DNA of 64,000 nt, from the NCBI GenBank assembly GCA_963664015.2, contig CAXXLF010000002.1, positions 1,408,001 to 1,472,000 of the forward strand, given 5' to 3'. Source of the stretch: Candidatus Binatia bacterium (GTDB lineage: Bacteria; Desulfobacterota; Binatia; UBA9968; CAXXLF01). The position numbers and the translations under genes are program-made. Shown one piece after another: positions 12,871 through 18,107 of this stretch (positions are counted from its first letter, which is position 1; each line of letters starts with the position of its first letter). The notes under the pieces are model-generated. The model was given only the letters and a program-made list of their open reading frames with translations, did no database searches and had not been told where the DNA came from.

Positions 12871-14049
12871 GTGAAACGCACCCTCAGCCTTTACGTGATC
12901 TCCGAGATCCTGACCCCCTTCTTGCTGGGTCTCATGGCCTTCACCTTTGTTCTACTCACGGCTCGGATCCTCAAACTCGTCGAGCTCTTGATCACCCGGG
13001 GAGTTCCGTTTTTACAGATCGGCAAGCTCTTCACCCTCATCCTGCCCACCTTCCTGGAGATGACGTTGCCCATGGCGCTCTTGCTCGGTATCCTCATGGG
13101 ATTGTCTACATTGTCCAGTGATCAGGAAATTCTCGCCTTCAAGGCATGCGGCGTCAGCCCGCTTCAAATCCTGCTACCCATCGGGACCGTGGCCCTGTTC
13201 GTTTCCCTGTTTACCTTAATGATCAGCACACACGTGGGCCCCGCCGCCAATCTTGCCCTCAAGAAGGAACTCTACAACATAGCCAAGACCCGTGTGGGAG
13301 CAGCACTCAAAGAAAAGGTCTTTAACGATGACTTCCCCAAGGTGCTGATCTACGTGGAGGAGGTGATTCCTCCCGGCAACACGTCTCAAGGAGTCCTCAT
13401 TGTAGACCGTCGCGATCCCGTGCGGGAAAATATCATATTCGGCAAAATGGCGATTTTCTTGTCTGATGATAATTCGGAGGCACTGAGCTTGAAGATTTTT
13501 GACGGCGTCCTGCACGAAAGAGAAAAAAACCAGCCGGACTTTAGCCAGACCCATTTCAGCACCTATCACTTCAAGCTCGAACTCGATCAAGCTTTCAATC
13601 TGGTACGGAAAAAGGGAGAAAAGCCCAAAGAGATGTCCCTTCGTCAACTGGGACGTTCCATCCGGAGCAAGGAGGCTCAGGGGCTCAAACCCACTGCCGA
13701 ACTCATTGAACTGCATCAGAGATTCTCTTTTCCTTTTGCCCCCCTGGTTTTCTGTATTCTTGGAGTCGCTTTGGTTATGATCCCAACGGGATCCCGTGGG
13801 GGGCGTTTCTGGGGTCTTGTTTCCTGCCTATTCTGGTTGCTTCTCTATTATACTTTATTTTCCGCTGGGCGCGCCCTGGCGGAGAAAGAGATACTGGCTC
13901 CATCCCTTGCCATGTGGCTCCCCAACATCGTCATCGGCCTGATCGCCATTTATATTTTTCAAAAGGCAATGAGGGAATCTCCTCCCCTGTTAGAGGTAAT
14001 TTGGCAAAAGGGTTCAGCCTTTTGGAGTCGGAGATTCACCTCCCAGTAA
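12871..14049 (+). CDS. lptF: LPS export ABC transporter permease LptF
   Basis: 3 TM + periplasmic domain + 3 TM layout; LSSDQEILAFKACGVS coupling helix; AMWLPNIV; upstream of an LptG-type gene. Confidence 0.92.
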   Translation: MKRTLSLYVISEILTPFLLGLMAFTFVLLTARILKLVELLITRGVPFLQIGKLFTLILPTFLEMTLPMALLLGILMGLSTLSSDQEILAFKACGVSPLQILLPIGTVALFVSLFTLMISTHVGPAANLALKKELYNIAKTRVGAALKEKVFNDDFPKVLIYVEEVIPPGNTSQGVLIVDRRDPVRENIIFGKMAIFLSDDNSEALSLKIFDGVLHEREKNQPDFSQTHFSTYHFKLELDQAFNLVRKKGEKPKEMSLRQLGRSIRSKEAQGLKPTAELIELHQRFSFPFAPLVFCILGVALVMIPTGSRGGRFWGLVSCLFWLLLYYTLFSAGRALAEKEILAPSLAMWLPNIVIGLIAIYIFQKAMRESPPLLEVIWQKGSAFWSRRFTSQ

Positions 14050-14073
14050 AGGAGGCGTTTTTAAAATGGCCCA

Positions 14074-14375
14074 TGGACTCCATAATATGGAGAGGGACCG
14101 TTCATGACCAAAGCTGATCTAATTGAATCTGCAACCAACAAATCGGGACTCCCCAGGCAGAGTGTTGAGAATATCATTAATGATGTTTTCAACGGCATAA
14201 CAGCTGCATTAAAAAGCGGAGATAAGGTGAATATCTCCGGATTTGGAACGTTTTCGATTTCCCAACGTAAGGCAAGGACTGGGAGAAATCCCAAAACTGG
14301 AGAATCGATTCAGATTACTGCTTCTCGTGCTGCAAAATTTAAGGCTGGTAAGGGTTTAAAAGAATCCCTCGCCTG
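14074..14375 (+). repeat. Inverted ~300-bp duplicate of hup plus 30 nt of 5' UTR (partner at 17791-18092, minus strand)
   Basis: Manual alignment: 8 mismatches in 270 coding nt and 3 in the 30 upstream nt; TGG replaces the TGA stop. Confidence 0.97.
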
Positions 14376-15486
14376 GGAAGCCCCCGATCGTAACGTCTCA
14401 CTCCCCTTCGGAAGCATCCTGGATCGTTACCTGGTGCGCAGCTTTAACCGGGTCTTCGTCCCCACATTGATGGCAATAGGTTTTGTGTACTTCACCGTGG
14501 AGTTCTTTGATCGCATTGATAATCTGATGAGGGCAGGAGCCTCCGCCGGGGCTGCCACGAGATACTTCCTGTATAAGATTCCCCTGCTGATTTCACGGGT
14601 GTTTGGTTTTGCCACCCTCTTTTCCACCCTTTTAACGATCGGGATGCTATCACGAACCTATGAAATCACCGCAATGCGCGCATCGGGCCTGAGTCTACAC
14701 CGCCTTGCTGCACCCTTGCTCTTCGTTTCCATGCTCATTGGAATGCTATCCTTCATGTGGAACGAGAGCCTGGTACCGCTGTTCACCCGTAAGTCCCAAT
14801 ACATCTACAAGGTCGAAGTTAAAAACCAGACCCCCAAGAGCCTCATTGGGACCCAGGGGATATGGATCCGTGGCAAAGAGGCCTTTATCAGTGTGGACTA
14901 CTTCGACGCCAAGAAAAATATACTCCAGGGGGTCACCATTTACCTCATCAACTCCGAATTTACCCTTCAAGGACTCATCGAGTCCCCTGAGGCCCGTTGG
15001 GACGGGTCACGCTGGCGCACCGGCGAGAGTACCGGATGGACCTTGCTGTCCGACGGCCGGCTTAGCCAGCAGCAGGCAACCGTAAGGGTTCTCCCCATCT
15101 CCGAGAAACCGGAAGACTTCAAGATCCTGGCCCGCAAGGCAGAAGAGTTCAACTTCTTCGAGCTCAAGCGGCAAATCAAAGATCTAACCGATAAGGGGAT
15201 TGATACCACCGAGTACGCAGTCGATCTGCAGGTCAAGCTTGCGTTTCCAATGATCCCTTCCCTCATGGTCCTACTGGCTATCCCCTTTGCCCTCAAACAG
15301 GGGACCCGAGCGGGAGTTGCGATCTCCTTTGGATTTACCATGCTCATCGGGCTCGCCCACCTGACCCTCATGGCCTTTTGCGTTTCTCTCGGCCATAGCG
15401 GTGCCATGCAGCCATGGATGGCCGCATGGTTACCCAATTTCGTATTGGCATTAGTTGGGATCTATTACATGACCGGTGAGGAGTAA
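14104..15486 (+). CDS. lptG: HU (residues 1-90) fused in frame to LPS export permease LptG
   Basis: Residues 1-90 are 84/90 identical to HU at 17790-18062 (ISGFGTF...RTGRNPKTGE). From about residue 105 it is LptG-type: ILDRYL, EITAMRASGLSL, AAWLPN. No stop and no in-frame ATG/GTG/TTG lies between the HU part and ILDRY. Confidence 0.9.
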   Translation: MTKADLIESATNKSGLPRQSVENIINDVFNGITAALKSGDKVNISGFGTFSISQRKARTGRNPKTGESIQITASRAAKFKAGKGLKESLAWEAPDRNVSLPFGSILDRYLVRSFNRVFVPTLMAIGFVYFTVEFFDRIDNLMRAGASAGAATRYFLYKIPLLISRVFGFATLFSTLLTIGMLSRTYEITAMRASGLSLHRLAAPLLFVSMLIGMLSFMWNESLVPLFTRKSQYIYKVEVKNQTPKSLIGTQGIWIRGKEAFISVDYFDAKKNILQGVTIYLINSEFTLQGLIESPEARWDGSRWRTGESTGWTLLSDGRLSQQQATVRVLPISEKPEDFKILARKAEEFNFFELKRQIKDLTDKGIDTTEYAVDLQVKLAFPMIPSLMVLLAIPFALKQGTRAGVAISFGFTMLIGLAHLTLMAFCVSLGHSGAMQPWMAAWLPNFVLALVGIYYMTGEE

Positions 15487-17789: not shown

Positions 17790-18062
17790 TCAGGCGAGGG
17801 ATTCTTTTAAACCCTTACCAGCCTTAAATTTTGCAGCACGAGAAGCAGTAATCTGAATCGATTCTCCAGTTTTTGGATTTCTCCCAGTCCTTGCCTTACG
17901 TTGGGAAATCGCAAATGTTCCAAATCCGGAGATATTCACCTTCTCTCCGCTTTTTAATGCAGCTGTTATGCCGTTGAAAACCTCATTAATGATATCCTCA
18001 ACACTCTGCTTGGGGAGTCCCGCTTTGTTGGTTGCAGATTCAATTAGATCAGCTTTGGTCAT
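17790..18062 (-). CDS. hup: DNA-binding protein HU
   Basis: 90 aa, GFGTF...RTGRNPKTGE signature; classic lon-hup synteny. Confidence 0.97.
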   Translation of the reverse strand: MTKADLIESATNKAGLPKQSVEDIINEVFNGITAALKSGEKVNISGFGTFAISQRKARTGRNPKTGESIQITASRAAKFKAGKGLKESLA

Positions 18063-18107
18063 GAACGGTCCCTCTCTATATTAGGAAGTCCAACGGTATA
18101 ATGTTGG

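Follow-up and report, generated by a model that had tools for sequence, protein, structure and literature searches.

An HU-LptG fusion in a marine Binatia lineage and its origin in an inverted copy of hup

Introduction

The nucleoid protein HU is known with membrane anchors in two settings. In Burroughs et al. (2017, PMC5499826), HU-CCDC81 proteins combine an N-terminal HU, a disordered segment and a transmembrane (TM) helix, halobacterial HU proteins carry TM helices, and nucleoid-envelope tethering is proposed. LptG, the permease subunit to which HU is joined at the locus described here, crosses the membrane in six TM helices, connected by three loops in the periplasm and two turns in the cytoplasm (PMC5548808). 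The locus is a single open reading frame (ORF) that fuses HU to LptG of the lipopolysaccharide (LPS) transporter LptB2FG. It lies in a 64,000-nucleotide (nt) stretch of DNA, hereafter the window, from Candidatus Binatia bacterium, a marine bacterium (GenBank assembly GCA_963664015.2, contig CAXXLF010000002.1, positions 1,408,001 to 1,472,000, forward strand); coordinates below are those of the window.

The fusion resembles the canonical LptG of LptB2FG(C) in its full-length match to the Pfam family PF03739, in finding its best structural matches among G chains and in lying directly after lptF. It differs by 104 extra N-terminal residues, made up of a 90-amino-acid (aa) HU domain, one Trp and a 13-residue tail, whereas solved LptG chains start three to six residues ahead of the ILDRY-type motif. 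Comparison with lptG in related genomes, which an earlier reading made without database searches (the sequence-only reading) had recommended, sets the fusion apart in the same way: relatives in the order carry a 16-residue tail ahead of ILDRY and no HU domain.

With the HU-CCDC81 and halobacterial TM-HU proteins the fusion shares an architecture only, namely a cytoplasmic HU, a disordered segment and a membrane anchor (PMC5499826). Those proteins form old and widespread clades that have a single TM helix and carry SPOR or LysM domains, whereas here a recent copy of a housekeeping HU sits on a 6-TM transporter subunit (PMC5499826). Membership in the HU-CCDC81 clade (PF14908, PF18289) was considered and rejected, PF14908 scoring 19.8 bits against a cut-off of 26.1.

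Single-chain LptF-LptG proteins offer a second comparison. Among 150 listed representatives, 29 (P0024, P0031 and 27 others) are 757-854 aa long with the LptG match in the C-terminal half, and both of the two proteins of this size that were scanned carry two PF03739 domains. As in the fusion, the N-terminus of LptG is there covalently attached to the end of a preceding cytoplasmic polypeptide; unlike in the fusion, the partner is the other half of the transporter and not an unrelated soluble DNA-binding domain. Because such tandems occur naturally, an N-terminal appendage on LptG is evidently tolerated in nature. A 554-aa protein (P0161) has a partial first PF03739 copy.

On the HU side, engineered single-chain IHF (2iif_A and 2iie_A; 204 aa, the top PDB match) indicates that covalent linkage to another chain is compatible with the HU/IHF fold. 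HU forms obligate intertwined dimers. Unlike free HU or single-chain IHF, the fusion would bring one HU domain per transporter, and a dimer would need free HU or a second fusion protein.

An uninterrupted ORF joins a complete HU domain to the only LptG of the genome

The fusion ORF and its parts are:

14104..15486 (+), HU-LptG fusion ORF: ATG start, 460 aa plus stop, no internal stop.
14104..14373 (+), HU domain, codons 1-90: PF00216, E 3e-30; PDB HU chains, for example 1hue_A, E 4.4e-20.
14374..14415 (+), linker, codons 91-104: the junction Trp, then 13 residues of the native LptG N-terminal tail.
14416..15483 (+), LptG core, from ILDRY to the C-terminus: PF03739; PDB G chains.

At the DNA level the HU-LptG fusion is real. 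Both Pfam families are found in this one protein, and each profile is matched nearly from end to end: Bac_DNA_binding (PF00216) covers residues 1-89 (profile 1-89 of 90, 104.8 bits against a cut-off of 22.4, E 3e-30), and LptF_LptG (PF03739) covers residues 108-456 (profile 1-351 of 353, 246.2 bits against a cut-off of 27.9, E 6.5e-73). The sequence-only reading had described a single uninterrupted ORF of 460 codons with a complete HU and a full LptG, and had suggested a search for this domain architecture; the profiles agree with it on both counts. The exact 460-aa protein also stands in a public protein collection as a gene call. Codon 91 of the fusion is TGG, where the free HU gene has TGA. 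Codons 91-104 contain no ATG, GTG or TTG, in agreement with the earlier claim that LptG lacks a canonical start of its own, and the sole other canonical in-frame start ahead of ILDRY is GTG at codon 42 (14227).

We assign the permease part to LptG rather than LptF, judging by its matches to G chains and by the position of lptF directly upstream. All eight permease rows returned by the PDB search are G chains of LptB2FG (best 6mit_G, 3.5e-21; also 6s8g_G, 5l75_G, 6mhu_G, 9doh_G and 5x5y_G), and ILDRY aligns with residues 4-7 of the solved LptG chains. In an alignment of 13 sequences, the LptG core is 51-65% identical to its 12 relatives, with 75 invariant columns; within ILDRY, R and Y are invariant and I, L and D nearly so. 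Because of this alignment and the topology of LptG given in PMC5548808, the LptG N-terminus and the HU domain ahead of it would face the cytoplasm, the side on which HU had been placed from the sequence. An AlphaFold model of the fusion is poor (pLDDT 60.2, pTM 0.36) and too poor for geometry; it shows helices at 102-242, strands at 253-325 and helices at 336-458, the order that six TM helices with a periplasmic beta-jellyroll between TM3 and TM4 would give, so far as a model of this quality can be read, and an HU-like pattern of secondary structure, with residues 89-101 lacking secondary structure and a mean pLDDT of 27 for residues 91-100.

The genome (3.51 Mb in two contigs, 97.29% complete) contains two matches to PF03739, lptF and the fusion ORF, with no third. 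The fusion is accordingly the sole lptG, which upholds the corresponding claim at this completeness. PF00216 has five matches in the same genome. LptD and LpxC are encoded as well, and because of their presence we take the organism to make and export LPS.

The HU segment is an inverted copy of hup

The donor and the inserted copy are:

17790..18062 (-), free hup (HU), the donor: 90 aa; donor segment 17791-18092 (-).
14074..14375 (+), inserted inverted hup copy: a 30-nt leader with the Shine-Dalgarno sequence (SD) GAGAGGG, all 90 codons and the TG of the stop codon.

BLAST of the insert against its own genome aligned it with window positions 17791-18092 (-) over 302 nt at 96% identity and returned exactly two copies. 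In the alignment, homology between the two HU regions starts 30 nt 5′ of the ATG and runs as far as the TG within the stop codon. The breakpoints can be placed to within 2-3 nt, as 14072-14373 fits equally well. The copies differ at 11 of 302 positions (3/30 in the leader, 8/270 in the coding sequence). Free hup sits 3.4 kb downstream on the opposite strand, and at least 11 of the 40 relatives likewise have hup on the strand opposite to lptG, 1.3-2.6 kb past it; since it occupies the syntenic place, free hup is taken as the original copy. A candidate hup promoter identified by eye (TTGACA-18 nt-TATAAG, 18136-18108) lies outside the copied segment, and because it was left out of the copy, transcription of the fusion would have to come from lptF. 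A promoter scan was uninformative (4 sites against 3.4 expected). The copied segment begins roughly 10 nt past a transcription start placed by eye, a coincidence given no weight here.

Neither Ku nor an RVT_1 reverse transcriptase was found in the 97%-complete genome, and for this reason end-joining capture or a retro-copy gets no support. Template switching as the mechanism of insertion is a guess on our part; a GCCTG microhomology appears under just one of the two possible breakpoint readings.

Left of the insert lie lptF and the remains of the old lptG start:

12871..14049 (+), lptF, first gene of the lptF-lptG pair: 392-aa ORF, PF03739 E 1e-88, directly upstream of the fusion.
14039..14055 (+), hairpin CCTCC-7 nt-GGAGG followed by a T-run: terminator-like hit that spans the lptF stop and the old lptG SD.
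14066..14107 (+), ancestral lptG start remnant and upstream ORF (uORF): ATG 14066 opens 13 codons, and TGA 14105-14107 overlaps the HU ATG 14104-14106.

By these features the insertion point is about three codons into lptG. The old lptG SD, AGGAGG at 14050-14055, is followed by TTTTTAAA and then by ATG 14066, all immediately 5′ of the insert. Three family-level relatives (L009, L011 and L012) were readable on the plus strand; in these, with starts assigned by eye, lptG begins right behind a purine-rich stretch and TTTTTAAG or TTCTTGAG, 16 codons ahead of ILDRY. When the 302 nt are removed, ATG 14066 comes into frame with codon 92 onward, and this ATG, the next two codons and fusion residues 92-104 together make 16 residues ahead of ILDRY. 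Because the frame is restored and the tail length matches that of the relatives, we identify ATG 14066 as the ancestral start and the linker as LptG's own tail. The sequence-only reading had described a 14-residue linker between the two domains; its presence and length stand, while 13 of its 14 residues are the native N-terminal tail of LptG and not new sequence.

A uORF whose stop overlaps the next start codon is a classical arrangement for coupled re-initiation. The hairpin at 14039-14055 could mask the SD or couple translation of lptF and lptG. In contigs from two seawater runs (X6 and X7, introduced below), the lptF stop TAA (14047) reads CAA, which would add five codons to LptF and end it at TAA 14062-14064, immediately ahead of the old lptG ATG.

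The two 302-nt copies are also inverted repeats 3.4 kb apart. The block between them, read from sequence motifs, presumably comprises argC, rpsI and rplM, plus tRNA-Asp and tRNA-Val. Recombination between the repeats would flip this block and bring the fusion under the hup promoter; because short-read contigs end in a 30-mer shared by the copies, they cannot distinguish the two orientations.

The fusion recurs in other sequencing runs

At least part of the stretch occurs in 20 runs from 11 studies. We checked the junctions on Logan contigs of four runs (X1, X2, X6 and X7) from four studies. Record 1 of X1 and record 5 of X2 cover 13500-14119 with 0 differences and bridge the left junction; record 4 of X1 and record 7 of X2 cover 14090-15200, again with 0 differences, and include the HU ATG, the right junction and LptG. 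In these two runs the fusion ORF from 14104 to 15200 therefore lies within one contig. A seawater metagenome (X6, record 9) bridges the left junction over 13607-14132 and has no cover over 14133-15000. Another seawater metagenome, from a different study (X7, records 13 and 15), bridges the left junction over 13861-14108 and the right junction over 14318-14944.

The X7 strain differs at 21 positions in 1518 nt outside the HU body (~1.4%). Record 14 of X7, which covers the HU body, has free-copy-like upstream sequence and was left out as a fused copy. In the contigs checked there are no indels and no TGA at 14374-14376, and codon 91 remains TGG. The check across the insert, for which the mapping of reads had been put forward earlier as the means of exposing a hidden stop or a false join, came out in favour of the fusion on these contigs: they support both junctions, and the fusion is present in two or more strains.

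No other HU-LptG fusion was found

None of the 40 relatives joins HU to LptG. Their matches to the fusion start at query residues 75-102, and the relative whose match starts at residue 75 reads through a TAA. A search of 400 sampled genomes of the phylum with residues 1-139 gave, among the rows listed, a stop-free match across the junction in the window's genome alone. Long open frames on LptG in genus g5 were considered and set aside: they overlap lptF out of frame and are not fusions.

Protein collections gave the same picture. The HU region searched against proteins of 253-805 aa gave 7 matches, 0 of them with PF03739, and the junction region searched against proteins shorter than 253 aa gave 2 matches, both LptG alone. 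In a scan of 1.84 billion representatives, none of the 150 matches listed aligns before query residue 79. Such collections display one representative per cluster; that of the cluster containing the fusion of the window is a 90-aa HU, and further young fusions could escape notice in the same manner. A junction-specific degenerate pattern had 0 matches in a metagenome contig collection. For the LptG part we found six metagenome-contig loci, at most 60% identical, and one genome-contig locus at 53%, with no close kin in the pre-insertion state among them.

In the search with the HU region, other long HU-domain proteins (P0001-P0007) appeared as singletons, each on one contig, and may be similar accidents or run-on gene calls. 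Among them, P0002 combines an HU domain with the GatB-type domains PF02637 and PF02934, and P0004 combines one with the Lon protease domains PF05362 and PF13541.

In the literature we likewise found no HU-LptG fusion among the papers listed; the available text of the 2017 survey of HU architectures has 0 mentions of 'lpt' or 'permease', though its supplements might list rare architectures (PMC5499826). The earlier statement that no such fusion had been described agrees with our searches of relatives, phylum sample, protein collections and print. The fusion is lineage-specific, of a kind not seen before, and its origin is clear.

The HU copies diverge under possibly relaxed constraint while the LptG frame is conserved

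Fused and free HU are identical at 84 of 90 residues (93%). The six differences (fused/free) are S14A, R18K, N23D, D27E, D40E and S51A. Judged by seven HU outgroups (P0009, P0010 and L040-L044), A14S, D23N and E27D arose in the fused copy, and the free copy acquired R18K, D40E and S51A. The beta-arm RKARTGRNPKTGE, with its conserved Arg residues and Pro, is the same in the fused copy, the free copy and 6 of 7 outgroups, L043 having RNARAGRNPKTGE. D40E and S51A in the free HU may reflect relaxed constraint after duplication.

The two HU copies are separated by six non-synonymous and two synonymous differences (pN/pS 0.92). The chance of such a 6:2 pattern is P = 0.004 at an omega of 0.1 and 0.046 at an omega of 0.2, which suggests that the copies diverged under relaxed constraint. 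By the outgroup assignments the fused domain is decaying no faster than the free gene, and the numbers are too small to separate a passenger from a working domain. From six conservative changes and an intact arm the sequence-only reading had argued that DNA binding may persist. The arm is indeed intact; the changes are no sign of retained function, as three of them belong to the free copy and pN/pS is 0.92.

Selection on the permease could be read from the X7 strain. The LptG part of the fusion ORF, 3′ of the HU body, differs from X7 by eight synonymous and two non-synonymous changes (A93D in the linker and V239I). For lptF the counts are seven synonymous and two non-synonymous, plus the stop-codon change. 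These ratios show purifying selection acting, at the level of sequence, on the LptG frame in fusion-carrying strains.

A tolerated passenger is the favoured explanation

We think it probable, if by no means certain, that the fusion works as LptG and that its HU domain is a tolerated passenger whose value was to rescue translation. A 302-nt inverted hup copy, comprising a leader with its ribosome-binding site, the whole coding sequence and two stop bases, was inserted about three codons into the only lptG and threw the native start out of frame; that start now opens a 13-codon uORF ending on the HU ATG (ATGA). The copy brought its own SD and ATG and lost its stop, and would thereby have rescued translation of an essential gene in the same step. 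Initiation at 14104 would give 90 HU codons, Trp, 13 LptG-tail residues and LptG, the fusion and lptF presumably sharing a transcript that starts at the lptF promoter. On the cytoplasmic side of the membrane, the HU domain, as part of an obligate dimer, would probably pair with the abundant free HU. We infer translation from the HU ATG, and the status of the fusion as sole copy, the presence of LpxC and LptD and the purifying selection on its frame all point, indirectly, to function as LptG. The sequence-only reading had listed a tolerated passenger as its alternative; it now appears the more economical reading, because the insertion broke the lptG start and brought a new one.

Several observations weigh against this explanation or the evidence for it. 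The fused HU keeps D40 and S51, which are invariant in 7/7 outgroups and altered in the free copy, and its three derived changes are all conservative with the arm intact, which fits retained function as well as youth. The comparison with X7 covers the fusion ORF outside the HU body only. The assembly may itself derive from X1 or X2, in which case that run would not be independent of it. Finally, every contig breaks at the 30-mer 14090-14119 common with the free copy and none bridges both junctions, so that the connection of lptF with the fusion depends on the assembly. This last point would also allow for an assembly chimera between the HU copies, since a short-read graph cannot be followed from one side of the repeat to the other. 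However, both flanks of the insert are lpt sequence, as expected of an insertion and not of a chimera, 11 of 302 positions distinguish the copies, and the right junction lies inside single contigs in X1, X2 and the diverged X7. A lptG pseudogene is contradicted by the open 460 codons, the full-length Pfam match, the 8:2 excess of synonymous changes and the lack of a second lptG in the genome. We regard an artefact or a pseudogene as largely refuted and very improbable.

A further challenge to the passenger reading is that the cell might produce LptG of native size, either from a non-canonical internal start (ATC 14416, CTG 14419 or GTG 14434) or through post-translational removal of HU. The linker is predicted to be unstructured (residues 89-101, in the poor model) and could be a cleavage site, and GGAAG lies 3-6 nt ahead of ATC/CTG. 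On the other side, codons 91-104 offer no ATG, GTG or TTG, and GTG 14434 would remove the near-invariant ILDRY. In addition, the uORF stop overlaps ATG 14104, and without a stop all ribosomes starting at the good SD and ATG 14104 would continue into LptG. This alternative therefore strikes us as decidedly unlikely. The sequence-only reading had pictured the domain as pairing with free HU and tethering DNA to LPS-export sites. A tether of this sort, in which selection keeps an HU domain that binds DNA as a dimer, with either free HU or another copy of the fusion as partner, and so attaches the nucleoid to LptB2FG in the inner membrane, is a less remote alternative, though still an unlikely one. 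Such a tether would account for a complete domain with an unchanged arm RKARTGRNPKTGE, three conservative derived changes and D40 and S51 kept, and for the persistence of the fusion in strains ~1.4% apart. The cytoplasmic position fits it, and architectural precedent exists in HU-CCDC81 and halobacterial TM-HU proteins (PMC5499826). However, an insertion that destroyed the start explains retention without any HU function, since the domain could be shed only through an exact deletion or the gain of another start; the copies show a pN/pS of 0.92; and the fusion was found in one species only, with 0 of 40 relatives and 0 of 400 sampled phylum genomes sharing it.

Implications

Both junctions of the fusion can be traced to the base, and they record how a small inverted duplication could break and rescue the start of an essential gene in one step, by bringing in a ribosome-binding site together with a start codon and a domain in frame. 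The locus is also a natural test of LptG, part of an antibiotic-target machine, which here would tolerate, at its cytoplasmic N-terminus, the addition of a folded DNA-binding domain of 10 kDa. If HU is carried only as a passenger, the fusion is a neat example of constructive neutral evolution and little more. If HU on LptG is kept by selection, pairs with free HU and does hold chromosomal DNA where LptB2FG sits, the fusion would be a membrane-anchored nucleoid protein of recent and datable birth, by a local duplication of 302 nt. Should the HU domain prove active, the old idea of nucleoid-envelope tethering could be put to a simple test by comparing the fusion with a version that lacks exactly this domain.

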